From NCBI GenBank assembly GCA_965228485.1, contig OZ245819.1, positions 810,001 to 842,000 of the forward strand: DNA of 32,000 nt, given 5' to 3'. The notes below the pieces were generated by a model, which saw only the letters and a list, made by a program, of their open reading frames with translations, did no database searches and was not told the origin of the DNA. Made by a program: the position numbers and the translations under genes. The DNA comes from Candidatus Saccharimonadota bacterium (GTDB taxonomy: Bacteria; Patescibacteriota; Gracilibacteria; UBA4473). This document shows, one piece after another, positions 3,346 to 26,959 of this stretch (its first letter is position 1; each line of letters starts with the position of its first letter).

Positions 3346-5109
3346 ATGCTAAGAACACATCATTGCGGACAACTCAGAAAAGACCATATTGGCGAAACGA
3401 TTACCCTTACTGGATGGGTAAATAACCGACGAGATCATGGAGGAATTATTTTTGTAGACCTTCGAGACACTCACGGAGTCACTCAAATTGTGCTTGATCC
3501 AAGCATCAATGAAAAAGCTCATACTGAAGCCGAAAATGTTCGTTCCGAATGGGTTTTACAGGCCACTGGGAAAGTACGATCAAGAGGAGACGGGCTCGAA
3601 AATCCAAAACTAGATACCGGAGATATTGAGGTAGCAATCCAAGAATTAAAAGTTCTCAATGCGGCTCAAACTCCACCATTTGAACTCGACCTAGAAAAGG
3701 AAGTTCGAGAAGACCTCCGGCTTGAATACCGGTATCTAGACCTTCGACGAACAAAAATGCAAAAGAACCTTCGTCTACGTCACGATATGGTGAAAGTTAT
3801 TCGTGACTATTTTGACCGTAAAGGATTCTTAGATATTGAAACTCCAATTATGGTAAAAGGAACCCCAGAAGGGTCACGAGAATACTTGGTTCCTTCAAGA
3901 CTTCATCGTGGTGAGTTCTATGTACTTCCACAATCACCTCAGCAACTGAAACAGTTGCTAATGTGTGGAGGAGTGGATAAGTATTTTCAGATTGCACGAT
4001 GTTTTCGAGATGAAGACCTGAGAGGAGATCGACAACCGGAATTCACGCAATTCGAAATCGAAATGTCTTTCTGCACTCAAGAAGATGTCATCAACGTGAT
4101 TGAAGATTGTTTTCACGATCTAAATGAAAAGTGTGCTACACACAAAAACTGGAAAAAATACCTGGTTGATGGGAAATTCCTCCGAATGACCTGGCAAGAA
4201 GCTATGGAAAAATACGGATCGGATAAACCTGACATGCGATTTGGTCTAGAGTTCACCGATATGACAAAAGAAAAATCAGATTGTGGATTTGGCGTATTCG
4301 AGGGGGCAGAGCGACTTTTTGCCATGAATGTTCCAAACGGGGGTGAACTCAGCCGAAAAGATATTGACGATCTTACAAACCTAGCTCGAAAACATGGAGC
4401 GGGAGGACTCGCCTGGGTAAGAGTCGGAGAGGATGCAGGACCAGTGATGAAAAACTCTAAACCAGAGTTTATTGAAATGCTCGTCAATAAAACAAACGCT
4501 CAAGATGGAGATCTTATTTTCTTTGGAGCTGGGCCATTCTTACAAGCCGTTGAACCACTTGGGCAGGTTCGTCTTGAATTAGGAGATAAAATGAACCTAA
4601 AAGATCCAAATGATTTTGCTTATCTTTGGGTTGTAGACTTCCCAATGTTCGAGAAAAAAGAGGACGGCTCTATGCAGGCCGCTCACCATCCGTTTACACG
4701 ACCAAATAATGAAGATCTTGAAAAATTGGACAGCAATCCAATGGAAGTGCGTTCTTATGCTTATGATGTTGTGCTTAATGGAGTAGAGCTTGGAGGAGGT
4801 TCAATCCGAATCCATGAACCAGAACTTCAAGAAAAAATGTTCGATGTTCTTGGGCTTACTAAAGAAGAAACCGAAATGAAGTTTGGGCATATTTTAAAGG
4901 CCTTTAAATATGGATGTCCGCCACATGGAGGGTGTGCTATGGGACTTGATCGAGTCGTTATGCTTTTTGCTGACGAACCAAATATTCGAGAAGTAATGGC
5001 TTTTCCAAAAAATCAATCAGCTCAAGATTTAATGCTCGGAGCGCCTTCTCCAATGCCAGAAAAAGAACTCAATGAGCAAAACATTCAAGTTTTACCTGAG
5101 GAAGATTAA
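3346..5109 (+). CDS. aspS: aspartate--tRNA ligase (bacterial type, with insertion domain)
   Basis: Class II AspRS motifs: GWV..RRDHGGIIFVDLRD, QSPQQLKQLLM, FRDEDLRGDRQPEFTQ, GGGSIRIH, GGCAMGLDR. The track ORF starts at TTG 3292. ATG 3346 (MLRTHHCGQL...) matches the usual N-terminus. Confidence 0.95.
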   Translation: MLRTHHCGQLRKDHIGETITLTGWVNNRRDHGGIIFVDLRDTHGVTQIVLDPSINEKAHTEAENVRSEWVLQATGKVRSRGDGLENPKLDTGDIEVAIQELKVLNAAQTPPFELDLEKEVREDLRLEYRYLDLRRTKMQKNLRLRHDMVKVIRDYFDRKGFLDIETPIMVKGTPEGSREYLVPSRLHRGEFYVLPQSPQQLKQLLMCGGVDKYFQIARCFRDEDLRGDRQPEFTQFEIEMSFCTQEDVINVIEDCFHDLNEKCATHKNWKKYLVDGKFLRMTWQEAMEKYGSDKPDMRFGLEFTDMTKEKSDCGFGVFEGAERLFAMNVPNGGELSRKDIDDLTNLARKHGAGGLAWVRVGEDAGPVMKNSKPEFIEMLVNKTNAQDGDLIFFGAGPFLQAVEPLGQVRLELGDKMNLKDPNDFAYLWVVDFPMFEKKEDGSMQAAHHPFTRPNNEDLEKLDSNPMEVRSYAYDVVLNGVELGGGSIRIHEPELQEKMFDVLGLTKEETEMKFGHILKAFKYGCPPHGGCAMGLDRVVMLFADEPNIREVMAFPKNQSAQDLMLGAPSPMPEKELNEQNIQVLPEED

Positions 5110-7327: not shown

Positions 7328-7369
7328 TTGTCTATTTTGCTGACATCGCCATAATCATGGCGATGTCAG
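7328..7369 (+). promoter_or_regulatory. putative trpC promoter overlapped by a perfect 13-bp inverted repeat covering both candidate start codons
   Basis: TTGTCT (7328-7333), 16-nt spacer, CATAAT (7350-7355). Inverted repeat: CTGACATCGCCAT (7340-7352), AATC loop, ATGGCGATGTCAG (7357-7369), followed by TTTT. The 3' arm contains ATG 7357 and ATG 7363. Confidence 0.5.
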
Positions 7370-8142
7370 TTTTAGAAAAAATTATTATCCAGAAACAAAA
7401 GGAAGTATCTGGCTTAGCCCAAAGCCTTAAGAATGCAAAGCCAATACAATCCAAAAGGTCTTTTATTGGGGCTATTAAAAAAAGTAAAAATCAGACACTC
7501 CCAAATTTTATTATGGAAATAAAAAAAGCTTCTCCATCAAAAGGAGCGATTGCACCAGAGGCCGATGTGGCCGAAATTGCAGAAACTTATGAAAATAATG
7601 GAGCGAGTGCTATTTCGGTATTAACCGACTTTGAGTTTTTTGATGGCTCTCTTGCTGACTTGAACAATGTCGTTCGGAACACCCAGGTTCCGATCCTAAG
7701 AAAAGATTTTATTATTGACCCATTGCAGATATTAGAAGCTCGACTCAGTGAAGCAAACGCCGTCTTACTCATGACCTCTATTTTAAAAACCAAAGAAAAA
7801 CTAACCACATTTCGAGAATACGCCGAAAGCCTTGGTATGGATGCTCTGGTAGAAACTCAAGATGAAGCAGAAATTCAAACGGCACTAGAAAGCGGAGCAA
7901 AAATTATTGGGGTTAATGCTCGTCATTTTTCAGATCTCTCAGTCGACATAAATCGGGTTCCACCATTACTCAAAAAAATTCCTAATGACATTGTAAAAGT
8001 CGCTGAATCGGGAATTAATAGTGCTTCAGATATACAAAAAGTAGCACCGTTTTGTGATGTTGTTCTAGTCGGGAGCTCTCTTATGAGCGAATCTGCTGAA
8101 TCAATTCCAGATAAAATAAAAGAACTGAGGAATGAAAATTAA
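7357..8142 (+). CDS. trpC: indole-3-glycerol phosphate synthase
   Basis: Motifs IMEIKKASPSKG, ISVLTD..FF.GS, PILRKDFIIDP.QI.EAR, ES(G)I. The start may instead be ATG 7363 (MSVLEKII...) if the mRNA is leaderless from the CATAAT box. Confidence 0.92.
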   Translation: MAMSVLEKIIIQKQKEVSGLAQSLKNAKPIQSKRSFIGAIKKSKNQTLPNFIMEIKKASPSKGAIAPEADVAEIAETYENNGASAISVLTDFEFFDGSLADLNNVVRNTQVPILRKDFIIDPLQILEARLSEANAVLLMTSILKTKEKLTTFREYAESLGMDALVETQDEAEIQTALESGAKIIGVNARHFSDLSVDINRVPPLLKKIPNDIVKVAESGINSASDIQKVAPFCDVVLVGSSLMSESAESIPDKIKELRNEN

Positions 8143-8746
8143 AATCTGTGGAATCAGAAACCAGGAAATGCTAGATGCCTGTGAAAATCTTCAGGTTGAC
8201 TTTATTGGTCTCAACTTTGTATCTACTTCTGAGCGAAGAATTTTAAATGACTTTATTCCTCAAACAAAACTTAAAAAAGTTGGGATCTTTCAAGATCAGG
8301 CTTTGCAAGAAATTAGTAAGTATTCACAGCAGTGGTCTCTAGATATTATTCAACTTCATGGGACAGAAACTCCAGAATTTCTTAAGCGATTAAAACTACT
8401 CAGTAATACCCCCATCTGGAAAGCATTCTCTATTGATAAGAATTTTGAAATCAACAAGTTGCAAGAGTATAGCAAAAACTGTGATTTGTTTTTATTTGAC
8501 GGGAAAACCCCAGGAAGTGGAACAAAAATATTAGACAACAAGGTTCTTTCTGACGCTATTTCTGAATCAAAAAAACTAGGCATCTTGGTTGGAATTGCCG
8601 GAGGAATTAATGATGCAAATATACACAAATTCAAAAAACAATTTCCCGAAGTCTATGTTTTAGACACCGCATCAGGCGTTGAAGAAAAGAATAATTTCAG
8701 CCACAAAAAACTTGAAAAACTTATCAAACAGTTTAGAAATGAATGA
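8132..8746 (+). CDS. trpF: phosphoribosylanthranilate isomerase
   Basis: MKIKICGI..., DFIGLNFV..S.R, IQLHG, LFDG...GSG, LDTASGVE. Overlaps the trpC stop by 11 nt. TGA stop. Confidence 0.9.
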   Translation: MKIKICGIRNQEMLDACENLQVDFIGLNFVSTSERRILNDFIPQTKLKKVGIFQDQALQEISKYSQQWSLDIIQLHGTETPEFLKRLKLLSNTPIWKAFSIDKNFEINKLQEYSKNCDLFLFDGKTPGSGTKILDNKVLSDAISESKKLGILVGIAGGINDANIHKFKKQFPEVYVLDTASGVEEKNNFSHKKLEKLIKQFRNE

Positions 8747-9368
8747 GAAAAAATATGTGTTTTGGGATTTTGATGGAGTTATTACTGACTCAACTACATT
8801 TGTTTTTAAATTTTGGAAACAAAGACTGGAAACAGCTGGATATGATTTCAAATTAGAAGATTATCAGGCCACCTTTGAAGCCAAGTTTCCATTCGACTAC
8901 CTCCGAGAAAAATATGGCAATCTAGGAGAAGATATTAAAGAAGAATACTCCACATATGAAAGTGAGAATTACGCCCTAAATGTTCCTCTTTTTAAAGATA
9001 TGAAACCGACTCTTATCACTATTGCTAATAATCGTGATTTTTTTGCGGTCTCTTCAAACCTGGCCAAAGTTTTAAAAGAAACCTTCGATAAACACCAATT
9101 AAAAGCTTACTTTTCTGACATTATTGGACGAGAATCAGACGGCTATAAAGATGAAAAAATTGATAAAATCATAAAACACTACAACATCGCAAAAAATGAT
9201 TGTGTTTTTATAGGAGACACTATTAGTGATATGAAACATGCCCAATCGGCTCAAATAGATCGAATTGCCGTCTCTTGGGGAGTGCACTCAAGAGAAAAAC
9301 TCGAAACAAGCCCTGCACAGATTATCTGTGATACCCCGGAAGAATTACGTAAACTATTCGTATCATGA
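8739..9368 (+). CDS. HAD-superfamily hydrolase (phosphoglycolate-phosphatase-like subfamily IA)
   Basis: DxDG nucleophile motif FWDFDGVITDS. C-terminal GDTISDMKHAQSA...AVSWG. Start taken at ATG 8739 (MNEKKYVFWDFDG), which overlaps the trpF stop by 8 nt. The track start 8679 lies inside trpF. Confidence 0.8.
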   Translation: MNEKKYVFWDFDGVITDSTTFVFKFWKQRLETAGYDFKLEDYQATFEAKFPFDYLREKYGNLGEDIKEEYSTYESENYALNVPLFKDMKPTLITIANNRDFFAVSSNLAKVLKETFDKHQLKAYFSDIIGRESDGYKDEKIDKIIKHYNIAKNDCVFIGDTISDMKHAQSAQIDRIAVSWGVHSREKLETSPAQIICDTPEELRKLFVS

Positions 9369-10123
9369 CCTTAAATACTTCAAATTTTGCTCTTATTACT
9401 GGCGCTTCTAGTGGCATTGGAAAAGCCGCTGCCAAACAGTATGCCGCTCTTGGAAAAAATCTCATTCTTGTAGCGAGAAGACAAGAGAGGCTTAAGACAC
9501 TCAAAAAAGAATTAGAAGGCAAAAACATCGAAGTAAAAATCTTTTCTGTAGATGTACAAAATTTAAACGCTATTGAGAAATTTTATGAAGATATTTCTGA
9601 TCTAGAAATTGATATTCTTGTAAACAATGCCGGACTTTCACGAGGGAAAGAGCCTTTTGACGAGTATGATTTTAATGACTGGGAAGAAATGATTGATACA
9701 AATATCAAAGGCTTTTTAAAAGTTGCACAACTGGCTATTCCTTTCCTTAAAAAAACCCGTGGACATATTGTAAACCTAAGCTCAACAGCCGGGCTAGAGG
9801 CCTATGAAGGTGGGAATGTCTATGGAGGAACCAAAAGCTTTGTTCAGATGATTTCAAAATCACTCAGAATCGATCTGCTTGGCACTGGAATACGAGTAAC
9901 AGACATTGCCCCAGGGGCCGTAAATACTGAATTTTCAACTATTCGCTTCCATGGAGATAAGCAAAAAGCTGATCAAGTTTATGAAGGTTTTCGGGAACTT
10001 ACCGCTGATGACATCGCAGATAATATAATCTATGCCACGACTCGTCCTCCGCACGTAAACATTGAACAAATCGTGGTTTACTCAACCGATCAAGCCAGCC
10101 CAAGAATTTTTAATAAGAGCTAA
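9365..10123 (+). CDS. short-chain dehydrogenase/reductase, YdfG-like (NADP-dependent 3-hydroxy acid / serine dehydrogenase family)
   Basis: TGASSGIGKA Rossmann motif, NNAG, catalytic S...YGGTKSF (YxxxK). Near-colinear with E. coli YdfG as recalled (RRQERL..L..EL, ILVNNAGL, DTN.KG, VTDI.PG...TEFS..RF.GD). ATGA overlap with the HAD gene stop. Confidence 0.85.
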   Translation: MTLNTSNFALITGASSGIGKAAAKQYAALGKNLILVARRQERLKTLKKELEGKNIEVKIFSVDVQNLNAIEKFYEDISDLEIDILVNNAGLSRGKEPFDEYDFNDWEEMIDTNIKGFLKVAQLAIPFLKKTRGHIVNLSSTAGLEAYEGGNVYGGTKSFVQMISKSLRIDLLGTGIRVTDIAPGAVNTEFSTIRFHGDKQKADQVYEGFRELTADDIADNIIYATTRPPHVNIEQIVVYSTDQASPRIFNKS

Positions 10124-10134
10124 AACAACAGCTT

Positions 10135-10163
10135 TTGACAAACACCAAAATAAGTATTATTAA
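10135..10163 (+). promoter_or_regulatory. sigma70-like promoter placed for a leaderless transcript of the 10170 ORF
   Basis: TTGACA (10135-10140), 17-nt spacer, TATTAA (10158-10163), then 6 nt to GTG 10170. Confidence 0.5.
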
Positions 10164-10169
10164 TGCTTT

Positions 10170-10679
10170 GTGGACAAACCAGAAAAATCGGACTTAGAGA
10201 AAAAATCAGCAGAAAAACTTGTAGAAAGTATTCTTGAACAAAAAGAGCAAGACTTGGCTTTATCAACAAGCCTCGCCATATCAGCAGCCATTGCGCTTGT
10301 GTCTGAAGAATTCATTGAGATTTTACAATCCAGACTCCAGAACATGAGCTTTCGAGTTACAAAAGAACAAAGACACACTGACCTTGAAAGCTACACGCTA
10401 ACATCGGAGCTCGGAGAAGTTGTAATAGAGATTGATATAGGCAACGGGGGAATACTCGATCCAACAGTTTATCTGGGAGGGAATAAAAAACATCCAAATC
10501 TTTCACTTATTTCTGGATCAATAAATAATAACGATAGAATCACACTGGACTTAGATAATAACGAAGAAGAGGAACAAACTGAAAGGTTCAAACAAATAAT
10601 ATTAGATTGGATTCAACAAAAAATAGAAGCCATTGGCACTTCTAAAATCGGAACCGCAACAACTCTCTCTTTGGATTAG
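10170..10679 (+). CDS. acidic hypothetical protein
   Basis: 169-aa ORF with a GTG start directly behind a consensus-like promoter. No family recognised. Its stop overlaps the convergent VanW gene stop by 4 nt. Confidence 0.5.
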   Translation: MDKPEKSDLEKKSAEKLVESILEQKEQDLALSTSLAISAAIALVSEEFIEILQSRLQNMSFRVTKEQRHTDLESYTLTSELGEVVIEIDIGNGGILDPTVYLGGNKKHPNLSLISGSINNNDRITLDLDNNEEEEQTERFKQIILDWIQQKIEAIGTSKIGTATTLSLD

Positions 10680-11596
10680 TAAACGGCTTTGTAGCTCGAA
10701 TAAATATCATCAACCAGGACTTCTTCCTCTTTCTTTACTATACGCTGCCAGCCCGTTACCAGATCTCCAGAGTACCGACTCCTTATATTGGTTCTTTTTA
10801 TAGACACCTCTCTCCCATCCTGAGTTCCGTACAAAGCCACTACAAGCTTATTTCCATCTATATAAGGTTTTACCAGCAAATCAGTGGTCATGTCATTGGT
10901 AAAAACGAGATCTTGAGCTCCCAAGTAAATAGTAGCATCAAGTCCATAAGGCAAATACTTATCATAAGCATAAGTATGAGCTCTCCTCTCATTAATGGGC
11001 AATCCGGCGTTAAGCGCCGCTCTATACACAGTCGTCGACAATTGGCAAACACCACCCCCTAAAGCATAGGTCCCTTCTCCGTTTAGCACGACTTTCTCTT
11101 TTACAAAACCGTCTTCGGGATTAACCGATTCCAGAATTTGATTAAAAGAAAATTTTTCTCCGGCAGGAATCACAATTCCATCGAACTTTTTCATCGCGGC
11201 TTTAATATTTTGTACTCGAGACCAACTAGAGCCAGAAAAGTCCGACACCCCCAAACTAACTACTTCTTTTATTCCGTAATGATTCAGTACTGGATCATTA
11301 ATCTTTTGATATAGCTGATCTTGTTGTGTTGGATCAAAGTGTCCGCCTAAAATGAGGTTTTCGTTAACATGAACTGCTCCCAAAACATTCGCATTGGGAA
11401 GAATGGTATTATCTTGATCTAATTCTGGTCTAATATCGACAATCGTTGGCTTTAGACGATGATCATAATCCACTAATAACTCATCACTATCCTGAGGTGA
11501 ATTATAGAGCGTAGTTTTTATAATTATAGGCTCAGTCTGTCCAACCGCTTGAACAGGCTCCCACCACTGCCATAAAAAAAACACAACTGTCCACAT
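10676..11596 (-). CDS. VanW-domain protein (paralog 1), secreted/membrane-anchored
   Basis: VanW core GGGVCQLSTTVYRAALNAGLPINERRAHTYAYDKYLPYGLDATIY. Hydrophobic N-terminus. Confidence 0.85.
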   Translation of the reverse strand: MWTVVFFLWQWWEPVQAVGQTEPIIIKTTLYNSPQDSDELLVDYDHRLKPTIVDIRPELDQDNTILPNANVLGAVHVNENLILGGHFDPTQQDQLYQKINDPVLNHYGIKEVVSLGVSDFSGSSWSRVQNIKAAMKKFDGIVIPAGEKFSFNQILESVNPEDGFVKEKVVLNGEGTYALGGGVCQLSTTVYRAALNAGLPINERRAHTYAYDKYLPYGLDATIYLGAQDLVFTNDMTTDLLVKPYIDGNKLVVALYGTQDGREVSIKRTNIRSRYSGDLVTGWQRIVKKEEEVLVDDIYSSYKAVY

Positions 11597-11650
11597 AGTT
11601 CTGTTCTAAAAATATTGCTTATTAAAGTCAATTTTGATTATTATTTTTAT

Positions 11651-11690
11651 TTGACGAACCTAAAACATTTTGTACTGTTGCACCAGTACA
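11651..11690 (+). promoter_or_regulatory. putative trpB promoter with overlapping 7-bp-arm palindrome (TrpR-operator-like)
   Basis: TTGACG (11651-11656), 16-nt spacer, TACTGT (11673-11678). Palindrome TGTACTG-TTGCAC-CAGTACA (11671-11690) covers the -10 box and the expected transcription start. trpB ATG is at 11703. Confidence 0.45.
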
Positions 11691-11702
11691 AGAACACGAA
11701 AA

Positions 11703-12875
11703 ATGATAGAAAATCAACAAGGACATTTTGGGAAATTTGGAGGCTGCTTTGCCCCAGAACTTCTTCAACCAGTACTAAAGAAGGTAGAAGAAAGCTTCGA
11801 ACATTTCAAAGAATCGTCTTCACTTCAAACAGAATTTGATTACCTATTAAAAACATTCGCAGGTCGTCCAACACCACTCTACCAAGCTCAGAACTTTGCC
11901 CCAAAAGGAGGAGCTCAGATATGGGTTAAAAGAGAAGACCTTCTTCATGGAGGAGCCCATAAAACAAACAATGTCATTGGGCAAGCGCTGCTTGCCCGTG
12001 AAATGGGAGCCAAATATCTCATTGCTGAAACTGGTGCTGGACAACATGGAATTGCTACTGCAATGGCAGGGGCTCATTTCAATCTTCCCGTAAAAGTTTT
12101 TATGGGAGCAAAAGATGTAGCTCGACAAAAAGTAAATGTTGAGCGTATGGAACTCCTTGGAGCGGAAGTGATTGCTATTGAAACAGGCTCTGCCTCACTT
12201 AAAGATGCTATAAACGAAGCCATGCGCTATTGGATTAGCAATGCTGATGGAACCTACTATATGTTTGGAACAGCCGCGGGTCCACACCCATTTCCTGAGC
12301 TCGTGGCGCGATTTCAACGAGTCATTGGAGATGAAGCCCGATCACAAATACTTAAACAAACTGGGACTCTTCCGAATGAGGTTCTGGCCTGTGTAGGAGG
12401 AGGGTCAAACGCTATTGGCATTTTTCAAGCTTTTTTAGAAGACGAGGTAAAACTAGTAGGCGTCGAACCTGCTGGAAACGGAGAAAAACATGGGCTCACT
12501 ATTGGAAGAGGAAAATTTGGATGCCTTCACGGAAGTCTCAGTAAAGTTAACTGCGATGAAAATGGACAGATTGAAGAAAGTCACTCAATCTCTGCTGGGC
12601 TGGATTATCCAGGAGTTTCTCCAATTCATGCCTATCTTGATGACATTCAAAGAGCCGAATATCAAGGTATTCATGATGATGAAGCGATTGAAGCACTGCT
12701 AAAATTCTCAAAATCAGAAGGAATTATTCCTGCTCTAGAATCTTCTCACGCACTAGCAGAAGCCTATAAGCGAGCAAAAAAAATGACCACTGATTATATT
12801 ATTCTGGTAAATCTTTCTGGTAGAGGAGACAAAGACTTACATACTGTATTTGATTATATGAATCTTCATGGATAA
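11703..12875 (+). CDS. trpB: tryptophan synthase beta chain
   Basis: GHFGKFGGCFAPELL, REDLLHGGAHKTNN, ETGAGQHG, GGGSNA(IG)F, SISAGLDYPGV. Start taken at ATG 11703. The track TTG 11670 lies inside the promoter palindrome. Confidence 0.95.
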   Translation: MIENQQGHFGKFGGCFAPELLQPVLKKVEESFEHFKESSSLQTEFDYLLKTFAGRPTPLYQAQNFAPKGGAQIWVKREDLLHGGAHKTNNVIGQALLAREMGAKYLIAETGAGQHGIATAMAGAHFNLPVKVFMGAKDVARQKVNVERMELLGAEVIAIETGSASLKDAINEAMRYWISNADGTYYMFGTAAGPHPFPELVARFQRVIGDEARSQILKQTGTLPNEVLACVGGGSNAIGIFQAFLEDEVKLVGVEPAGNGEKHGLTIGRGKFGCLHGSLSKVNCDENGQIEESHSISAGLDYPGVSPIHAYLDDIQRAEYQGIHDDEAIEALLKFSKSEGIIPALESSHALAEAYKRAKKMTTDYIILVNLSGRGDKDLHTVFDYMNLHG

Positions 12876-13341
12876 TTCTGCTTTTATTGCTGTAGCTGCA
12901 CCACTTATTTTCTGCCTTGCTTTCATAGGAATATGGGTAGGAATTTTAACCTTTGTTGGTCGTTTTAGTGGCTGGAACAAAATTTTTCAAGCTATGCCTC
13001 CAGCACCGCCAACAGCTCTTACAGATGGTGATCAAAAAACCTTTCGATCTGTTTCTGCGTCTATTGGGATGAGTAATTACAAGGGCTGCTTAACTGCAAA
13101 CACTAGTAGGCATGGTTTAACTTTAACTCTCTGGAAGATTTTTTCTTTTGGTCACCAGCAACCACTTTTTATTCCTTGGAATGAAATAAACACTTTAGAA
13201 CCACAAAAACTCTTGGGATTCGAGGTTGGGACCACCGTTAAGTTAAGAAATCCAAACCTTCCAAACCTAACATTCCAGAAAGCCATCTTTCAAAACAACC
13301 CCTATGTTCCAATGGAACTTCAGCAAAATCCGTCACTATAA
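12868..13341 (+). CDS. hypothetical membrane protein inserted between trpB and trpA
   Basis: 157-aa ORF. Its ATG overlaps the trpB stop (ATGGATAA, 8-nt overlap) and it ends 9 nt before trpA. N-terminal TM helix (FIAVAAPLIFCLAFIGIWVGILTFV). No family recognised. Confidence 0.6.
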   Translation: MDNSAFIAVAAPLIFCLAFIGIWVGILTFVGRFSGWNKIFQAMPPAPPTALTDGDQKTFRSVSASIGMSNYKGCLTANTSRHGLTLTLWKIFSFGHQQPLFIPWNEINTLEPQKLLGFEVGTTVKLRNPNLPNLTFQKAIFQNNPYVPMELQQNPSL

Positions 13342-13350
13342 AAAATAATT

Positions 13351-14133
13351 ATGAACCGCTACAACAATACTTTTCAAACACTAAAAACCGAAGATCGCAT
13401 TGCCTTTATTCCCTTCTGGATGATAGGAGATCCAACCCTTAACGATTCTCTGAATATTATTAAATCTCTCGGTGAATCAGCAGACATTTTAGAGCTTGGT
13501 ATGCCTTTCTCAGATCCACTTGCCGATGGACCGACTATTCAGGCGGCTGTAAATAGAAGCTTAGATTCTGGAACCAATACTCAAAAATGTTTTGAAATCA
13601 TAAAATCTGTTCGAGAAGAATTCCCCGATAAACCTATTGGATTACTGGTATATTTAAACCTTATTTTACAGTTTGGGATAGATAAATTTTTCTTATCCTG
13701 CCAAAACACAGGGGTTGACTCAGTCCTTATTCCAGAACTTCCTGTAGAAGAAATTGATCTCGTAAAAATCTCAGCAAAAAAGCATGAGATTGATCTCGTA
13801 TTTCTCCTCTCAACCAACACCCCACAAGAAAGACGTGAGAAAATATTCCAACACTCTGGAGGTTTTATTTATACCGTATCAAAACCCTCGATCACGGGCG
13901 CAAAATCTGAACTATCATCTGAAACTCTCGAGCTAGTTTCAAGCATAAAATCTACTACCAGTATCCCTTGTTGTGTCGGCTTTGGAATTTCAAGTTTTGA
14001 ACATATTAAAAAGCTAAAAAATGCTGGCGCCGATGGTGCCATTATTGGTTCTGAGCTTATAAACATTTATCAAGAAAAGGGGGCTGAAGCCCTGGATAAT
14101 TTTTGTAAAGAGTGCCAAGAGTCTACTACATAG
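13351..14133 (+). CDS. trpA: tryptophan synthase alpha chain
   Basis: ILELGMPFSDPLADGPTIQAA, LVYLN, IPELP.EE, GFIY.VS..GITG, GFGIS. Confidence 0.92.
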   Translation: MNRYNNTFQTLKTEDRIAFIPFWMIGDPTLNDSLNIIKSLGESADILELGMPFSDPLADGPTIQAAVNRSLDSGTNTQKCFEIIKSVREEFPDKPIGLLVYLNLILQFGIDKFFLSCQNTGVDSVLIPELPVEEIDLVKISAKKHEIDLVFLLSTNTPQERREKIFQHSGGFIYTVSKPSITGAKSELSSETLELVSSIKSTTSIPCCVGFGISSFEHIKKLKNAGADGAIIGSELINIYQEKGAEALDNFCKECQESTT

Positions 14134-15977: not shown

Positions 15978-16006
15978 ACGGATCGCTGCTCATGCGCCGT
16001 TTTTTT
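15978..16006 (+). terminator. intrinsic terminator of the serA leader, competing with an upstream antiterminator hairpin
   Basis: Terminator: ACGG-at-CGC-tgctcat-GCG-CCGT followed by T6. The ACGG can alternatively pair in CCGTCAAAAG/CTTTTACGG (15961-15981). The terminator ends 21 nt before the serA ATG. Confidence 0.5.
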
Positions 16007-16027
16007 GTTATTAATTTTCTTAAAAAT

Positions 16028-17257
16028 ATGAACAACTCCATCGATAAATCAAAGCTTAAAATCCTTCTTCTTGAAGGCGTTAGTCCAAAATCTCTAAATT
16101 ACTTTAAAGACAATGGCTATGAAAATATTGAATACATCAAGACCGCTCTTCCAGAGTCTGAGCTCATTGAAAAAATAAAAGATGTACACTTCATAGGAAT
16201 TCGCTCTCGAACCCAGCTCACAAAAAATGTTTTTGAAGCGGCAGAAAAACTAACCGCCGTGGGATGTTTTTGTATTGGGACGAACCAGGTTGACCTTGAA
16301 GCAGCAAAAATGAAAGGAGTCCCTGTTTTTAACGCTCCATTTGCAAATACGAGAAGTGTAGCAGAACTTACTATTGCTTCAACTATCCACCTTATGAGGG
16401 GTATTCCTGCTAAAAATATTGCCGCGCACAGAGGAGAGTGGCTTAAAAGTGCCGAAAATTCTTTTGAAGTAAGAGGAAAGAAGCTCGGAATTATTGGATA
16501 CGGAAATATAGGTTCTCAGTTAAGCGTACTTGCTTCAGGACTGGGAATGCACGTTTACTACTATGATGTTGAAAATAAACTTCCTCACGGAAATGCTCGT
16601 TCTACGAGCGATCTCAAAACCTTGCTAGGCATGTCTGATGTTGTCACTGTTCACGTTCCAGAAACTCCTCAAACAAAGAATATGATTAACAAAGAAGCTT
16701 TGAGCCAGATGAAACCTGGGAGCTTCTTGATCAATTATGCTCGAGGAACCGTTGTAGATATTGATGCCCTTAAAGAATCACTCGAAAACAAACATTTACT
16801 TGGAGCCGCTCTAGACGTATTCCCAAAGGAGCCAAAGTCAAAAGATGAAGAATTCGAATCTCCATTAAGAGGACTTGATAATGTACTTATTTCTCCACAT
16901 GTGGGAGGGAGTACTCAAGAAGCACAAGAAAATATTGGAACGGAAGTAGCCGAAAAACTTGTTCGATACTCTGATAACGGATCCACCGCTTGGGCGGTAA
17001 ACTTTCCAGAAGCAAACCTTCCAACCCATGACGGAAGCCATCGAATTCTCAATATTCACCAAAACATCCCAGGAATGATGAGTCAGATAAACCAAATCTT
17101 TGCAGAAAGCGGAACGAATATCGTCGGGCAGTTTTTACAAACTGATCCTGAAGTTGGTTACGTCGTAATCGATATTGATACCCAAAATGATCCTCATCAA
17201 TTCAAAGAAAAGTTAAGCACCATTGAAGGTAGCATTCGTACTCGTGTTCTCCATTAA
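16028..17257 (+). CDS. serA: D-3-phosphoglycerate dehydrogenase (long, E. coli-type with C-terminal ACT domain)
   Basis: Colinear with E. coli SerA as recalled (HFIGIRSRTQLT, AVGCFCIGTNQVDL, VPVFNAPFANTRSVAEL, GKKLGIIGYGNIGSQL, PHVGGSTQEAQENIG, YSDNGST..AVNFPE). Start taken at ATG 16028 (MNNSIDKSKLKILLLEG). The track ATG 15992 lies in the terminator loop. Confidence 0.95.
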   Translation: MNNSIDKSKLKILLLEGVSPKSLNYFKDNGYENIEYIKTALPESELIEKIKDVHFIGIRSRTQLTKNVFEAAEKLTAVGCFCIGTNQVDLEAAKMKGVPVFNAPFANTRSVAELTIASTIHLMRGIPAKNIAAHRGEWLKSAENSFEVRGKKLGIIGYGNIGSQLSVLASGLGMHVYYYDVENKLPHGNARSTSDLKTLLGMSDVVTVHVPETPQTKNMINKEALSQMKPGSFLINYARGTVVDIDALKESLENKHLLGAALDVFPKEPKSKDEEFESPLRGLDNVLISPHVGGSTQEAQENIGTEVAEKLVRYSDNGSTAWAVNFPEANLPTHDGSHRILNIHQNIPGMMSQINQIFAESGTNIVGQFLQTDPEVGYVVIDIDTQNDPHQFKEKLSTIEGSIRTRVLH

Positions 17258-17258
17258 A

Positions 17259-18332
17259 ATGTTTGATATCACCTTTAATCCCGGCCCATCACAAATATCA
17301 AAAGCGACAAAAAAAGATATTCAAGATGCTGTAGACCAAAGGATTCTAGAAATTTCTCACCGAAGTCCTCAGTTTTCTGAGATTTCAACTCAGGCTGTTA
17401 TTGGTCTACGAAAACTCCTCGATATTCCTGAAGACTATCATATATTTTACTTAGATTCTGCCAGTCAAGCCTGGCATTCAATCTTGAGCAATACCGTTGT
17501 GAAAAACTCTTTTCACTTTATTAATGGAGCCTTTTCTGAAAAGTTTTATAAAGCCGCTCAAGTGCTTAATAAATCTCCAAACCATCAAACCGTTTCTTGG
17601 GGGGAACAAAATGATTTTGAGACTGATATCCCAGTAAACACAGAGCTTATTACCGCTTGCTACAATGAAACGAGCACTGGAGTCATGATGAATGCTAAAC
17701 AACTTGAAGCCCTAAGAAAAAATAACCCAGACCCGCTTATTACCATTGATATTACCTCTTGTGCAGGGGCTATGAACGTAGATATATCACAGGCAGATTG
17801 TTGGTATTTTTCGGTTCAGAAATGCTTTGGACTTCCGGCTGGACTGGGGATTCTAATTGTCTCACCAAAAGCCTATGAAAGATCTATAAATTTAAAAAAC
17901 GAAGAAAAAAACTCAGCCGGTATTTGGCAATGGGAAAAACTCAACAAGCCTATGGTAGAAAAAAATCATCAAACTCCCCAAACCCCAAATGTGCTGAATA
18001 TCTACCTCCTTGCAAAACAATGTGAACGATGGAATAACTCTGGAGGTTTGGATCAAATAATCCAAGAAACTAAGACGAAGAAGCAAATGATTGAATCCTG
18101 GACTCAAGATTCTGACTTTAATTTTTTCGTATCCAGTGAAGATTTCCGATCAGACACGGTTTTAACCATCACGGGTTTGCCTGAAAAAGTGGCTGAAATA
18201 CACGAAAAATGTATGCAGAACAATATTGTGATGGGAAAAGGTTACGGAACAACCAAAGCAAATGTATTTAGAATTGCGAACTTCCCAGCGGTAACGGAGG
18301 AAGATCTCGAAAGGTTCTTTTCAATTATTTAA
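17259..18332 (+). CDS. serC: phosphoserine aminotransferase (class V aminotransferase)
   Basis: FNPGPSQISK N-terminus, ISHRS..F, NETSTG, SVQKCFG (PLP lysine context), RIANFPA. Starts 1 nt after the serA stop (ATG 17259). Confidence 0.85.
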   Translation: MFDITFNPGPSQISKATKKDIQDAVDQRILEISHRSPQFSEISTQAVIGLRKLLDIPEDYHIFYLDSASQAWHSILSNTVVKNSFHFINGAFSEKFYKAAQVLNKSPNHQTVSWGEQNDFETDIPVNTELITACYNETSTGVMMNAKQLEALRKNNPDPLITIDITSCAGAMNVDISQADCWYFSVQKCFGLPAGLGILIVSPKAYERSINLKNEEKNSAGIWQWEKLNKPMVEKNHQTPQTPNVLNIYLLAKQCERWNNSGGLDQIIQETKTKKQMIESWTQDSDFNFFVSSEDFRSDTVLTITGLPEKVAEIHEKCMQNNIVMGKGYGTTKANVFRIANFPAVTEEDLERFFSII

Positions 18333-23652: not shown

Positions 23653-23681
23653 AAAAAACAGCGACAAATTTCTGCGCTGTT
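23653..23681 (-). terminator. intrinsic terminator inside the glyA leader (or terminator of the upstream metA-like gene)
   Basis: Minus strand: AACAGCG (23681-23675), 11-nt loop, CGCTGTT (23663-23657), TTTT. It ends 41 nt before the glyA ATG. Confidence 0.6.
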
Positions 23682-23702: not shown

Positions 23703-23771
23703 CTAAACCTCTTTTCGCCCTTTCCCGGAAGGACGTAAAGCCATACTGTTCTGAGATATTTTGTGGGTCAT
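23703..23771 (-). CDS. upstream ORF in the glyA leader (MTHKISQNSMALRPSGKGRKEV; 13-codon version from ATG 23744)
   Basis: The first ATG is 11 nt after the TATCTT -10 box. The C-terminal 13 codons (ATG GCT TTA CGT CCT TCC GGG AAA GGG CGA AAA GAG GTT TAG) parallel the serA-leader uORF codon for codon. Confidence 0.55.
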   Translation of the reverse strand: MTHKISQNSMALRPSGKGRKEV

Positions 23772-23814: not shown

Positions 23815-24885
23815 TTAAGCCGCCAAAGAAAGTAGTGGATTTTCTGGGTCTACTCCTTTCATATATTTTTCATGACGCCCCTTCCCAGTGATCTTCAACA
23901 GGCCTGCTAACCACCGCTGAATAAGCTCATTCCCGGCTCCCTTCCAAGTAACCATTAAGTGTGGAGATATTTTAGCATAAAGCTCTTTTCGCTTTTCTTT
24001 GTCTAAAACATTCGCTGGATCAGACTGAAAGAGTGTTAAAAGTGTTTTCCCCTCAGCGGTTAAATAAGTAGGAAAGGGTGGTTTTGAATCCCCATTTTCA
24101 ATATGTCTCCCCAAGTCTCTCAAATATTCCATTAGTAAATCCATTGCTGAATACTCTGAGTGAGTTTGCAGCCCTAGAAACTTCATTTGTGGATCAACAG
24201 CCGCTCCAACCGATTCTCGAGTCCAGTTAATAGCATGGTTTAACACAATCCAATCCGGATGCCCCTCCAAATCTTTTCTTTCGACGTCTCCCCAGCGTGC
24301 GTGTACGGCTGTATGGTGAGTATCGGCATCTCTTACCAAAAAGTGATCACGACTTTCTAACGGAACTAAATGGTCATGAACTCCAATATTTTTTACATCG
24401 TGAAGAGTTCTATCAATCCCATGCTGCGTCTTTAGGAGGATATGAAAAGCCAAACAAGCAAACAGTCCTGTTGTTATATCTCCTTTTTCAATTTCTTGTA
24501 CTAAATCCTTAAAAGCGGGAACAAATGGTAGCGCCTCTAAATTTGGAACCTCTAGATCTCCCCCCGTAAAAACCATAGCATCTAAGCCGTCTTTGAGAAC
24601 AGAATCAATATCACGAGAAAATCTAGATAAATGCTCTAAAACTTCAGGTTTTGATCTCTCCATCCCGGGAATATTTACTGGATGCAGATAAACTTGTATT
24701 GATGGATCTGCCCAATTTAAATACCTTGCCCAAGTTCTAAATGTTTCAAAATAAGCAGAATCGGGCATATTGTTCCACAAGCCTATGTGTAATTCTCTGA
24801 TTTCTCTTTTTGAGGCTAACTCTAGATCTTCAATTCCTCGAATATCTTCTAAAACTGGATCGCCTAAATGATTTACTATTCCCAT
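23815..24885 (-). CDS. divergent MetA/HTS-family homoserine O-acyltransferase-like protein
   Basis: Manual alignment to E. coli and B. subtilis MetA. IRELHIGLWNNMP aligns with IRP.K...LNLMP. AMVFTGGDLE aligns with GLI.TGAP. LFACLAF carries the catalytic Cys (E. coli FVCWA). HARW aligns with HSRY. THSEY aligns with GHPEY, keeping His and Glu. About 50 extra C-terminal residues. Confidence 0.7.
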   Translation of the reverse strand: MGIVNHLGDPVLEDIRGIEDLELASKREIRELHIGLWNNMPDSAYFETFRTWARYLNWADPSIQVYLHPVNIPGMERSKPEVLEHLSRFSRDIDSVLKDGLDAMVFTGGDLEVPNLEALPFVPAFKDLVQEIEKGDITTGLFACLAFHILLKTQHGIDRTLHDVKNIGVHDHLVPLESRDHFLVRDADTHHTAVHARWGDVERKDLEGHPDWIVLNHAINWTRESVGAAVDPQMKFLGLQTHSEYSAMDLLMEYLRDLGRHIENGDSKPPFPTYLTAEGKTLLTLFQSDPANVLDKEKRKELYAKISPHLMVTWKGAGNELIQRWLAGLLKITGKGRHEKYMKGVDPENPLLSLAA

Positions 24886-24935
24886 TTTTTCTTCTTTTAA
24901 GTGTTTTTAAAAAATAATCAAAACAAAAGTCAAAA

Positions 24936-25622
24936 CTAAGGACTTAGCAATGTTTCTTTATTTCTTCCAAGATCAAAGGCTACTTTTGAAATCTCTAGTA
25001 GTCGATCTTCGGTAAAAAAATGAGGCTGAAAAGCTTCAGCATCGATAATCCCAATAACCTCCCCCTCTTCATCAAAAATGGGGAGACAAAACTCGCTTTG
25101 AACCTGCACATCACAAGTGTAGTAAGGCCCTTCATATTGTTCAACACTTTGTACTACAACCGCCTTACCAGAAAGTCCTACAGTAGAATTATTTGACCCT
25201 TTAGCAAACTCCTTATTTAGAGGAAACTCTCCTCGACTAAATCGACCGTAATAAGCTTCTTTCAGCAAAATTGTCTCCCCTTCTAAATTCGTTGTTTTAC
25301 GGTAGATACCAAGCCAATCAACGCCTGTAAGTTCTTGTAGGTGGGTTACAATTCGATTAAGCCTATAAAGCCTTAGCGTATTATCGTGTTTGGACAGATC
25401 AGCCTCTTCTAAACCAAGTGTTTTTTCAAGGCAATAAGGCTCTTGTGCCTTCAAACCGCATCCTGCACCAGGAACAATCTCTGGGACAGAATAATGATAA
25501 AGTTGATTAATTTCTTCTTCAGAAAAATGCCCTACAGACTCCTGCAATGAGGTAGCAACAAACTTATTAAGGCTTTTTTTCACTGACAACTCTAAACCGA
25601 TAGCCGATAGATAATGATCCAT
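24936..25622 (-). CDS. GAF-domain protein of the free methionine-(R)-sulfoxide reductase (fRMsr/YebR) type, with N-terminal extension
   Basis: The C-terminal ~150 aa align by eye with E. coli YebR. VDWLGIY aligns with INWAGFY. YYTCDVQVQSEFCLPI aligns with HIACDAASNSEIVLPL. VIGIIDAEAF...FTEDR aligns with IIGVLDIDS...FTDED. About 70 extra N-terminal residues. Confidence 0.65.
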   Translation of the reverse strand: MDHYLSAIGLELSVKKSLNKFVATSLQESVGHFSEEEINQLYHYSVPEIVPGAGCGLKAQEPYCLEKTLGLEEADLSKHDNTLRLYRLNRIVTHLQELTGVDWLGIYRKTTNLEGETILLKEAYYGRFSRGEFPLNKEFAKGSNNSTVGLSGKAVVVQSVEQYEGPYYTCDVQVQSEFCLPIFDEEGEVIGIIDAEAFQPHFFTEDRLLEISKVAFDLGRNKETLLSP

Positions 25623-25628
25623 AATTTA

Positions 25629-26768
25629 TTAAGTTATTTGAGATAATATTTTTTGAGAAAACTCTCCCTGGAATAAATTCACCCCATCCCTTGGAGTAAT
25701 CGCTATCCCATTGTAAAAAATTCTTCCATTCCCAATTAATAAGGGAGAAAAGCTTTCATTAGTATCCACTGGATCTTGGGGAACCCGGCCTCCATTAACA
25801 TTAAAAATAGGAATGGTCTTTGGTTTATAGCCGGTCGCCTGAATAATTACATCCGCCGCATCTAGAACTTCTGAAATTTCTTCAACCTCACCGCCATAAC
25901 CCAAGAATCTACTGTCTTCATCTTCTCCCGATTCTATTTTCTCATATCGGTCTTTTGCGTCCCCCCTTACTCCCTCAAACCTATGCACTTTTCCAGCATC
26001 AACATCTTCTTTTTTGTGAGCATAACTTGCATCTTTTGCTGCCGCTTCACTTGAATAATACAATTTAAAGTCATTTCGATGACAAAGCGTAATAGGATCC
26101 AAAACTCCCGCAGCACGGATATTATCAATACAAGAGAAGGCACTATGAGCCCCTCCAATGACCACAATATTTTTGCCTTCGACTCGCTCCTGAATTTCTT
26201 CACCAGAAAGACGTAAAAAATCATCAGAAAATACACGTTTATGGTCATTTTCTCGCAAGTTTAAAGGTTCTTGCTCGGCGCCAATCGAAAGAATCACATT
26301 TTTAGACACTACTATAGGCTCTCCGTCTGAGTCATAGGATACAACCTCTCCATCTTTATTAATTCGAAGGGCGCTAGCCTGAGCATCAATGATTGAGCTA
26401 TTAGAATTCTGTGAAGACTTAAGAATCCCGGACAAAGCCCTCCCCACCTCAGCCTCAAACCGTGCCATCGTTTTCAAGCAAATGATATCACCCCCTGTTT
26501 TACGAATTTCAGTGAGAAGATTACTTTTCCCCTCTAACTGATCTAAAACTGCTGCAGGAACGGTTTCCAAAAAATCTGAAGCTGCAGAATTAGACCGAAT
26601 TGAGTAACTTAATTTTCCCGATCCAAGATTTCTTTCAGGGCCAATCAATGCCAATCCTTTCTCCAATAGGGCCTCATACGAGAATCCGCCTTGCGATAAA
26701 GCTTTTAAAGGAATTCCTATGCCCGATGGACCGTTGCCGATTATCTGTGTTTCAAGTCTATCTACCAT
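25629..26768 (-). CDS. two-dinucleotide-binding-domain flavoprotein (FMO / N-hydroxylating monooxygenase / YpdA-like)
   Basis: N-terminal GxGxxG (IIGNGPSGIG). Second nucleotide motif VVIGGAHSAFS. C-terminal ATGY motif (IIQATGYKP), typical of class B flavoprotein monooxygenases and related reductases. No CxxC pair. Confidence 0.65.
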   Translation of the reverse strand: MVDRLETQIIGNGPSGIGIPLKALSQGGFSYEALLEKGLALIGPERNLGSGKLSYSIRSNSAASDFLETVPAAVLDQLEGKSNLLTEIRKTGGDIICLKTMARFEAEVGRALSGILKSSQNSNSSIIDAQASALRINKDGEVVSYDSDGEPIVVSKNVILSIGAEQEPLNLRENDHKRVFSDDFLRLSGEEIQERVEGKNIVVIGGAHSAFSCIDNIRAAGVLDPITLCHRNDFKLYYSSEAAAKDASYAHKKEDVDAGKVHRFEGVRGDAKDRYEKIESGEDEDSRFLGYGGEVEEISEVLDAADVIIQATGYKPKTIPIFNVNGGRVPQDPVDTNESFSPLLIGNGRIFYNGIAITPRDGVNLFQGEFSQKILSQIT

Positions 26769-26781
26769 ATTTTTAAGTATT

Positions 26782-26807
26782 AAAAAACCCGCCGAAGTAG
26801 GCGGGTT
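26782..26807 (-). terminator. intrinsic terminator (segments 3:4) of the Met leader attenuator
   Basis: Minus strand: AACCCGCC (26807-26800), TACTTC loop, GGCGGGTT (26793-26786), TTTT. It ends 13 nt before ATG 26768. No upstream gene on this strand could use it. Confidence 0.75.
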
Positions 26808-26833
26808 GGTACTTAGTTTCTTTTAATTTCTCA

Positions 26834-26890
26834 CTATGCACTAATCCGACCACTTCTCTTCAGAGAAGTCATCATCATAGTCATAGCCAT
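26834..26890 (-). CDS. Met-rich leader peptide MAMTMMMTSLKRSGRISA
   Basis: ATG GCT ATG ACT ATG ATG ATG ACT TCT CTG AAG AGA AGT GGT CGG ATT AGT GCA TAG. Five AUG among the first seven codons. Codons 8-15 contain attenuator segments 1 and 2. Confidence 0.7.
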   Translation of the reverse strand: MAMTMMMTSLKRSGRISA

Positions 26891-26911
26891 GCTTAAATTT
26901 TGCACGGATTC

Positions 26912-26940
26912 AAAGTAATCTGAGTTTCCTTTTATGTCAA
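26912..26940 (-). promoter_or_regulatory. promoter of the Met leader
   Basis: Minus strand: TTGACA (26940-26935), 17-nt spacer, TACTTT (26917-26912), then 21 nt to the leader-peptide ATG. Confidence 0.5.
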
Positions 26941-26959
26941 ATTTATTAAAATAAAAACA

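Follow-up and report, generated by a model that had tools for sequence, protein, structure and literature searches.

What is the function of an operon in which a flavoprotein gene, a gene for a GAF-domain protein and a divergent metA-like gene stand together behind a leader rich in methionine codons? The question is raised by a locus in a 32,000-nucleotide stretch of contig OZ245819.1, referred to here as the window. A sequence-only reading had described three genes on one strand, with gaps of 6 and 50 nt, behind a Met leader and with no metB/Y/C/E/H gene adjacent, and had proposed that the trio forms a methionine module. The open reading frame (ORF) coordinates confirmed this layout on the minus strand, which carries all the described features of the window (Table 1), with exactly 6 nt between the flavoprotein and GAF genes and exactly 50 nt between the GAF and metA-like genes. 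The neighbors of the operon were identified as glyA and trmB, no metB/Y/C/E/H gene adjoins it, and no metY/metB/metZ or metE/H gene was found within the window. The ORF calls are sound, given that TGA ends only 2 of 34 long ORFs and that coding density under table 11 is 89%; an alternative genetic code was rejected because table 11 fits the window. Our analysis indicates that the conserved, and probably the functional, unit at this locus is not the trio but a two-gene cassette, composed of the flavoprotein and a long GAF protein, under Met- or S-adenosylmethionine (SAM)-sensing control.

The leader-peptide ORF MAMTMMMTSLKRSGRISA contains five AUG triplets among its 18 codons, three of them in a row, and is followed by an intrinsic terminator of the form AACCCGCC-loop-GGCGGGTT. 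The stem (26807..26786) comprises eight pairs, six of them G-C, is followed by a U run and ends 17 nt short of the flavoprotein ATG. The leader region folded far more stably than shuffled sequence (z = -5.2), with the terminator present in the minimum free energy (MFE) fold. When a ribosome masked Met codons 6-7, the MFE fold changed to an antiterminator sequestering the 5' arm of the terminator, and with the ribosome placed at the leader stop codon the terminator stayed in the fold. The Met-rich leader, the terminator and this stall-dependent refolding bear out in silico the earlier claim that the operon is Met-attenuated, and in silico the operon is regulated by a Met-tRNA-sensing attenuator. 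With methionine plentiful, the ribosome would clear the AUG-rich leader and the terminator would form; with Met-tRNA scarce, it would stall on the AUG run, the antiterminator would form and the operon would be transcribed. No riboswitch or T-box was detected in the window at the Rfam gathering score, and the match of the leader region to Trp_leader was weak and sub-threshold (27.3 bits against a cut-off of 41, E 0.013). The element resembles the trpL, hisL, pheL, thrL and ilvL attenuators in its layout: regulatory codons repeated within a short ORF, a terminator placed ahead of the first gene, and an antiterminator that can form instead. It differs from them in that its regulatory codons are AUG (Met), and from the curated leader families in that it reaches no Rfam family threshold.

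Control of this type is not restricted to the window. One or two Met-rich leader peptides with a terminator were found ahead of the flavoprotein-GAF pair at 11 distinct loci, window included, drawn from Patescibacteria-group genomes and metagenomes. All flavoprotein-GAF loci with upstream sequence, except L011, carry one or two short ORFs with an AUG run, and behind each of these ORFs a GC-rich hairpin and a U run; one further locus is a contig fragment that lacks upstream DNA. The leader peptides include stretches such as MMMFMQM, SMMMAMMM, TMMNMMM, FMMNMMSMMM and MEMMMNMMM. Tandem pairs of differing leader-terminator units precede the pair in L002 (7330..7617), L169 (4720..5000) and L010 (6330..6550), and L001 is also counted among the loci with tandem Met leaders. 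In L011, a SAM-I riboswitch scoring above the Rfam gathering score lies directly upstream of the flavoprotein-GAF pair and replaces the Met leader; the attenuator and this element of the SAM-I (S-box) regulon are functionally interchangeable at the same operon. The type of sensor (SAM-I or Met leader) has thus been swapped at orthologous operons in candidate-phyla genomes. A similar Met leader heads an operon of core MetE, a methyltransferase and the GAF protein (L014), a pair formed by the GAF protein and a free methionine-(R)-sulfoxide reductase (fRMsr; L006) and a GAF gene that stands alone (L071). When 1.1 Mb was scanned blindly for short ORFs rich in Met, about 14 of the 26 matches lay within the few kb upstream of these operons. 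Searching the literature, we came across no account of attenuators based on Met codons. This regulation is the strongest functional evidence for the flavoprotein-GAF cassette.

The GAF gene is immediately preceded by the flavoprotein gene in the window and in L001/L009, L002, L003, L005, L008, L010 (labelled Peribacteraceae), L011, L015 (labelled Peribacteria), L169, L170 and L171, the spacing ranging from an overlap of 4 nt to a gap of some 35 nt. Moreover, flavoprotein homologues as close as E<1e-30 adjoin a GAF gene wherever their context is readable. The two genes could nevertheless be independent, co-regulated neighbors, with thioredoxin recycling the GAF protein and the flavoprotein serving methionine supply in some unrelated way, as might be expected from the varied neighbors of long-GAF genes, often without a flavoprotein, and from the candidate resolving cysteines that the GAF family itself owns. 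However, at least 12 loci have preserved the gene order and a tight or overlapping arrangement while flavoprotein identity falls to 23%, and this, together with the GAF linkage of the close homologues, makes independence quite unlikely.

The third gene behaves differently. The metA-like gene adjoins the flavoprotein-GAF pair in the window only and is absent at at least 11 other loci; among 88 loci carrying long-GAF genes no MetA-like homologue was detected except in the window, and a metagenome scan returned no relative of the protein. The neighborhood survey that the sequence-only reading had itself put forward as a means of refutation therefore speaks against the trio as a module. A fixed three-enzyme system acting, for instance, on an acylated acceptor would account for the shared strand, the 50-nt gap and the absence of a predicted terminator between the GAF and metA-like genes, but it is highly improbable, since the metA-like gene is missing from all other flavoprotein-GAF loci, among them the nearest relative (L001), with 97% identity in the cassette, and L003, which is syntenic.

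L001 belongs to the 1.33-Mb chromosome of a 'Candidatus Altimarinota' metagenome-assembled genome of the Patescibacteria group and carries the cassette between trmB and glyA, in the same place as the window but without the metA-like gene. A third syntenic genome (L003) has the order trmB, leader, flavoprotein (36% identical), GAF and glyA, again without metA. Nucleotide identity between the window and L001 is about 100% in the leader and 97% across the flavoprotein gene and most of the GAF gene, 88% from rny through trmB, and 72-75% in glyA, mnmA, serA/C and efp; the 191-nt intergenic region between trmB and the operon is likewise near-identical to its L001 counterpart. This distribution suggests that the cassette was recently exchanged, by recombination or transfer, between two fairly distant lineages. 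The high-identity block (window 25011..26787, L001 7982..9758) ends within the last ~25 GAF codons, so that the sequence beyond it has another history, which is a further argument against a fixed trio, and the metA-like gene looks like the window's own background or a separate insertion. L001 also differs upstream: its segment 7098..7990 contains the leader and terminator of the window followed by a gene for a 206-aa HemK/PrmC-like SAM methyltransferase, and then a second, distinct Met leader (MFSLRELMMYMMTEMSVSVVAVNLRC) with its terminator ahead of the flavoprotein. This looks like a deletion in the window or an insertion in L001 of about 770 nt, and it places a SAM-dependent methyltransferase under Met-leader control.

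The assignment of the third protein to the MetA family was upheld by a full-length HTS domain (122.4 bits, cut-off 27, residues 22-326) and by an intact catalytic triad, with Cys144 (FACLA), His242 and Glu244 (THSEY) aligning with C142/H235/E237 of E. coli MetA. It shares these features with the MetA enzymes of E. coli (7cbe/6mtg), B. cereus (2vdj) and T. maritima (2h2w), but is about 50 aa longer, has the MPxK lysine replaced (NNMPDS) and scores far below the NCBIfam equivalog cut-offs (NF003776, 185 against 358; TIGR01001, 89 against 495; NF047918, 81 against 460). Its residue at the position of E. coli Gly111 is Glu, which Zubieta et al. reportedly identified in 2008 as predicting acetyl specificity; the protein is therefore probably a user of acetyl-CoA, as far as can be predicted from this residue. 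The gene is probably co-transcribed with the cassette, as the terminator scan predicted none between it and the GAF gene. It appears to be a lineage-specific addition to the operon, and its Met control would fit the methionine theme, MetA catalyzing the committed step of de novo synthesis.

The GAF protein was found to belong to a family of about 230 aa, for which a word-index search retrieved 92 clusters and which occupies 341 loci in species-representative genomes of Patescibacteria, Halobacterium, Rheinheimera, Burkholderiales and some eukaryotes. In Halobacterium spp. (L017, L022 and L024) the protein has about 343 aa and is thus roughly 110 aa longer than in bacteria. The best match of the window protein in the PDB was yeast fRMsr (E 4e-5), and its AlphaFold2 model (predicted local distance difference test, pLDDT, 94.7) retrieved fRMsr structures at Foldseek ranks 1 to 8 (1f5m, 3mmh, 4mmn, 4mn7 and 3ksf; E 5e-10 to 2e-8). 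Cys170, in the sequence YYTCD, aligns with the catalytic Cys of the fRMsr 'HIACD' motif (Cys118 in E. coli and N. meningitidis) and is kept in at least 90% of 40 aligned family members. The fRMsr amino-acid pocket, reportedly formed by Trp62, Tyr66, Glu125, Asp141 and Asp143 (Lin 2007 and Gruez 2010), aligns with W103, Y107, E177 and D194, E196 standing for the second Asp. Sequence, fold, catalytic Cys and pocket residues thus agree with the earlier assignment to the fRMsr type, and we consider the long GAF proteins to be of fRMsr ancestry, with the catalytic Cys and the amino-acid pocket apparently retained.

The resolving cysteines are another matter. Those of E. coli fRMsr, Cys84 and Cys94, align with Arg130 and Asn144, inside invariant SR and SNNS motifs, so the statement that the protein is without the usual resolving cysteines held for both of these residues but has to be qualified by the presence of two other conserved cysteines. 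Cys55, which is invariant in the family, lies in a lower-confidence loop of the 85-aa N-terminal extension in the model; the near-invariant Cys179 lies two residues past the pocket Glu177 on the same strand and would probably face the pocket. The 40-member alignment also showed P47, Y63, W103, Y107, K121, S129-R130, F133-P134-L135, S143/N145/S146, C170-D171, S176-E177 and G191-IIDAE196 to be invariant or near-invariant. Compared with the fRMsr/MsrC enzymes of closest fold (YebR 1vhm, Ykl069w 1f5m, 3mmh, 3ksf and 4mmn), the long GAF protein is only about 20% identical, has 228 aa instead of a single domain of about 160-180 aa, with P47, C55 and Y63 located in the extension, carries SR, FPL and SNNS in place of the Cys-bearing loops and possesses the extra Cys179. 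In the lack of canonical intramolecular resolving cysteines it is like the type II fRMsr of Thermoplasma acidophilum (4mmn), and type II fRMsr is known to work without an intramolecular resolving Cys (PMC6211008).

The gene contexts of the long-GAF family also set it apart from fRMsr, as it is encoded with methionine-synthesis genes and, in Patescibacteria, with the flavoprotein. It stands beside a pyridoxal phosphate (PLP) enzyme resembling cystathionine-gamma-synthase/Met-gamma-lyase at 19 betaproteobacterial loci, with overlapping genes, and beside an aromatic (TyrB-type) transaminase at 33 Rheinheimera/Arsukibacterium loci. Further neighbors are split MetE with a gene resembling that of methylenetetrahydrofolate reductase (MTHFR), core MetE, a convergent metK, and homocysteine S-methyltransferase (HMT), the last in L013 with an unknown gene and a SAM-I riboswitch upstream. 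In L004 and L006 a canonical fRMsr belongs to the same operon, which in L006 has a Met leader separating MetE from the GAF genes. Methionine is the common denominator of these contexts. Since GAF domains are typically ligand sensors and the partners (flavoprotein, MetE, HMT, the cystathionine-gamma-synthase-like PLP enzyme, the TyrB-like transaminase and fRMsr) are non-homologous, the protein might be a non-enzymatic regulatory or adaptor subunit that binds Met, Met sulfoxide or homocysteine for a co-encoded methionine enzyme. We regard this as distinctly improbable in view of its three conserved cysteines, one of them at the catalytic position of fRMsr, and of its nearest structures, which are enzymatic fRMsr proteins and not sensor GAF domains.

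The identity of the flavoprotein was less straightforward to establish. The motifs GNGPSG, GGAHSA and ATGY, pointed out previously, were found at residues 11, 205 and 311, along with SNS, RFxGxRGDAK, IIQATGY and DGVN. A word-index search retrieved two or three matches even with a 26-sequence profile, and the size of the family was taken from an exhaustive HMMER search, which gave 551 representatives of clusters defined at 50% identity at E<=1e-3, 12 of them at E<=1e-30. The family motifs are GxGPAG, SNS, ATGA, GG(S/A)HSAFS, RFxGxRGDAK, IQAxGY and DGVN, and no NCBIfam model matched any of the 103 members scanned. A 128-sequence profile matched, among solved structures, MbtG (2e-8), KtzI (7e-7) and PvdA (9e-7), as well as putrescine N-hydroxylase and SidA, interleaved with thioredoxin reductase (TrxR) and TrxR-type ferredoxin-NADP reductase (FNR; 2e-7), which matched over shorter stretches. 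Of the three fingerprint motifs of the N-hydroxylating monooxygenases (NMOs), namely FAD GxGxxG/N, NADPH GxGxxG/A and D-x3-(L/F)ATGY-x4-P, the first is represented by GNGPSG, whereas GGAHSA is a variant of the second and DVIIQATGYKPKTIP has Q for L/F in the third; TrxR-type proteins carry similar motifs. The Lys_Orn_oxgnase family PF13434 scored 15.1 bits, under its cut-off of 21.3, with some relatives reaching E 1e-5. A model of the flavoprotein, built by AlphaFold2 from four sequences only, had a pLDDT of 44.

The kinship with YpdA-type thiol/disulfide reductases considered previously was not sustained. YpdA/Bdr and TrxR-type reductases are of the same superfamily and TrxR and TrxR-type FNR give partial profile matches, but three alignments of the flavoprotein family (A2, A4 and A6) contain no invariant or near-invariant Cys, so that the thiol chemistry defining these reductases is absent, and the best profile matches among solved structures are to N-hydroxylating monooxygenases; Cys97, Cys213 and Cys229 of the window protein are not kept in L003. 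A disulfide reductase of YpdA/TrxR type was rejected on this ground. A siderophore NMO was also rejected, as no such partner genes were found and the PF13434 score is below threshold. With the class B NMOs (PvdA 3s5w, SidA 4b63, MbtG 9nns, KtzI 4tlx and 7us3) the flavoprotein appears to share two dinucleotide-binding domains, an N-terminal GxGxxG, a second motif of GGxxSA type and D-x4-ATGY; it differs from them in its sub-threshold Pfam score, in invariant motifs of its own (SNS, H208, RFxGxRGDAK and DGVN), in the lack of siderophore context, in its pairing with a GAF thiol enzyme and in its Met/SAM control. Distant members are fused to a DegT-type sugar aminotransferase or a UDP-GlcNAc 2-epimerase (P0135, P0213 and P0232), and at distant loci (L089-L168) the neighbors are aminotransferases, genes resembling those of non-ribosomal peptide synthetases, Cys/Met PLP enzymes, or Aminotran_5 with DAO/GCV_T and creatinase, a GAF neighbor occurring in 1 of 80. 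These data favor descent from an amine or thioether oxygenase, and the wider family, which has no curated model, probably consists of amine oxygenases.

Such an ancestry raises the prospect of a two-step pathway, in which the flavoprotein would act as a class B monooxygenase, adding oxygen to the N or S of a precursor related to methionine, and the GAF protein would process the product to Met or homocysteine, perhaps with a sulfenate or sulfoxide as the intermediate that it traps or reduces, the substrate not being pre-formed Met sulfoxide. The matches to MbtG, KtzI, PvdA, putrescine N-hydroxylase and SidA, the NMO-like D-x4-ATGY with the second nucleotide-binding motif GGxHSA, the relatives fused to or beside aminotransferases and epimerase, the absence of a conserved Cys from the flavoprotein and the remodelled pocket loops of the GAF protein all speak for it. 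The NMO E-values are, however, marginal (1e-8 to 1e-6) and mixed with TrxR and FNR matches, PF13434 stays below threshold, and the flavoprotein is missing beside many long-GAF genes. An O2-dependent step is also less expected in Patescibacteria, most of which are fermenting anaerobes. We also know of no candidate substrate or precedent chemistry for such a pathway, which counts against it, and on balance we consider it unlikely.

We tentatively favor a different role for the cassette, namely the Met-starvation-induced salvage of free S-oxidised methionine through its reduction by the GAF protein, a proposal that is plausible but falls somewhat short of probable. It draws on the conservation of the cassette, on its Met or SAM control, on the likeness of the GAF protein to fRMsr and on the methionine contexts of the long-GAF family, which recur in unrelated lineages. 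The products of the cassette would raise methionine supply by this salvage: the GAF protein would bind free S-oxidised methionine, most simply methionine sulfoxide, Cys170 would reduce it, and Cys55 and/or Cys179 would replace the lost resolving cysteines of fRMsr. The flavoprotein would act in the same pathway, either as an NAD(P)H-linked redox partner or in an oxygenation step, as suggested by the conserved gene order and the translational coupling. In the window genome alone, the downstream MetA-type acyltransferase, predicted to be catalytically intact, would allow de novo methionine synthesis to be co-induced with salvage. Regulated salvage has precedent, since msrA is within a MetJ regulon (PMC4239095), as has the association with a flavin, a fusion of MsrB to a flavin-binding domain being on record from an archaeon (PMC6211008).

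Several observations weigh against the salvage proposal. In the GAF protein, the loops bearing the resolving cysteines are replaced by the invariant S129-R130, an FPL insertion and SNNS143-146, a remodelling that suggests an altered substrate. The L004 and L006 operons place the long GAF protein beside a canonical fRMsr, which in L004 has all three cysteines (E 3e-40 to 3ksf), so that the long GAF protein is unlikely to be simply redundant with Met-R-sulfoxide reduction. On the flavoprotein side, the family has no conserved Cys, the solved structures that it matches best by profile are those of amine N-hydroxylases, which depend on O2, and its wider members, fused to or beside aminotransferases in biosynthetic-looking clusters, point to an oxygenase rather than to an electron donor. 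It would, moreover, be futile for an oxygenase to oxidise the very atom that a sulfoxide reductase then reduces. Finally, simple MFE folding yields antiterminators for the window and some other leaders only. The earlier suggestion that the flavoprotein delivers electrons to the GAF protein is accordingly neither shown nor, without a conserved Cys, chemically favored: as a reductant the flavoprotein would be chemically awkward, whereas its relatives lend support to an oxygenase role.

A bolder form of the salvage proposal, which we hold to be doubtful, is that of a new system combining Met-codon attenuators, a new fRMsr branch with noncanonical chemistry and a dedicated Cys-free flavoprotein. 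The attenuators would then be the first described Met-codon class, interchangeable with SAM-I riboswitches. The GAF protein would reduce, beyond the range of canonical fRMsr, the Met-S-sulfoxide epimer or another S-oxidised Met derivative, which would explain its presence beside a canonical fRMsr in some operons. The flavoprotein would be either a reductant that draws on NAD(P)H independently of thioredoxin and acts in trans on the sulfenate or disulfide of a protein, or a partner oxygenase.

As to novelty, the view that the gene module is undescribed still stands: we found no description of the long-GAF family, of its flavoprotein partner or of Met-codon attenuators. Each protein is nonetheless of a known superfamily, and Met-regulated salvage is already a known kind of system. 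None of the three proteins in the operon reaches an NCBIfam cut-off. What the locus brings forward is an fRMsr-like family present in at least 341 species-level genomes, consistently in the context of methionine metabolism and without a named role, a flavoprotein family of about 550 clusters at 50% identity that is likewise without a name, and Met-codon attenuators as a kind of amino-acid attenuator in a bacterial group whose regulation is barely charted. The locus also bears on how reduced-genome episymbionts acquire methionine, and a Met-starvation-induced cassette under two independent sensors (Met-tRNA and SAM) strongly points to a missing step. Should a Cys-free flavoprotein indeed reduce the sulfenate or disulfide of its partner, this would be new redox enzymology.

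Table 1 Features of the window and of related loci, with their coordinates.
Feature	Locus	Coordinates	Strand	Basis or remark
Flavoprotein, 379 aa, two dinucleotide-binding domains	window	25629..26768	-	Pfam Pyr_redox_2 E 7.5e-9
Long fRMsr-like GAF protein, 228 aa	window	24936..25622	-	Pfam GAF E 1.6e-9
Divergent MetA-type homoserine O-acyltransferase, 356 aa	window	23815..24885	-	PF04204 E 2.5e-35
Leader-peptide ORF, 18 codons and stop	window	26834..26890	-	read from sequence
Attenuator intrinsic terminator with U run	window	26780..26807	-	terminator scan, MFE fold
Divergent intergenic region, 191 nt, between trmB (+) and the operon (-)	window	26769..26959	.	houses promoter(s), leader and terminator
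Small ORF ahead of glyA	window	23703..23771	-	peptide MTHKISQNSMALRPSGKGRKEV and stop; terminator about 23655..23681 (-)
SAM-I riboswitch	L011	6439..6540		ahead of flavoprotein-GAF; Rfam
SAM-I riboswitches	L013	584..688 and 4390..4478 (-)		ahead of the operon of unknown gene, HMT and GAF, and of metK
Operon of MTHFR_2-like gene, split MetE (separate Meth_synt_1 and Meth_synt_2), long GAF and canonical fRMsr	L004	2867..7222		
Operon of the same genes	L006	2497..7222		

Two further observations were made in the window. Segments 7357..14133 and 15992..18332 encode trpC, trpB, trpA and probably trpF, plus serA and serC, a set that exceeds the amino-acid biosynthesis usually expected of a Patescibacteria-group genome of ~1.3 Mb. 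In addition, an ORF of 22-23 codons immediately precedes glyA, with a terminator-like hairpin and a U run after it, and occurs also in L001 (9880..9960) and L003 (6720..6800); the element had no match in Rfam. The C-terminus of the encoded peptide, RPSGKGRKEV, is conserved in the three genomes, and its codons vary synonymously between them (CGA/CGT, AAA/AAG, GAG/GAA and GTT/GTC), a pattern suggestive of a small protein that is translated or of a glyA leader peptide.

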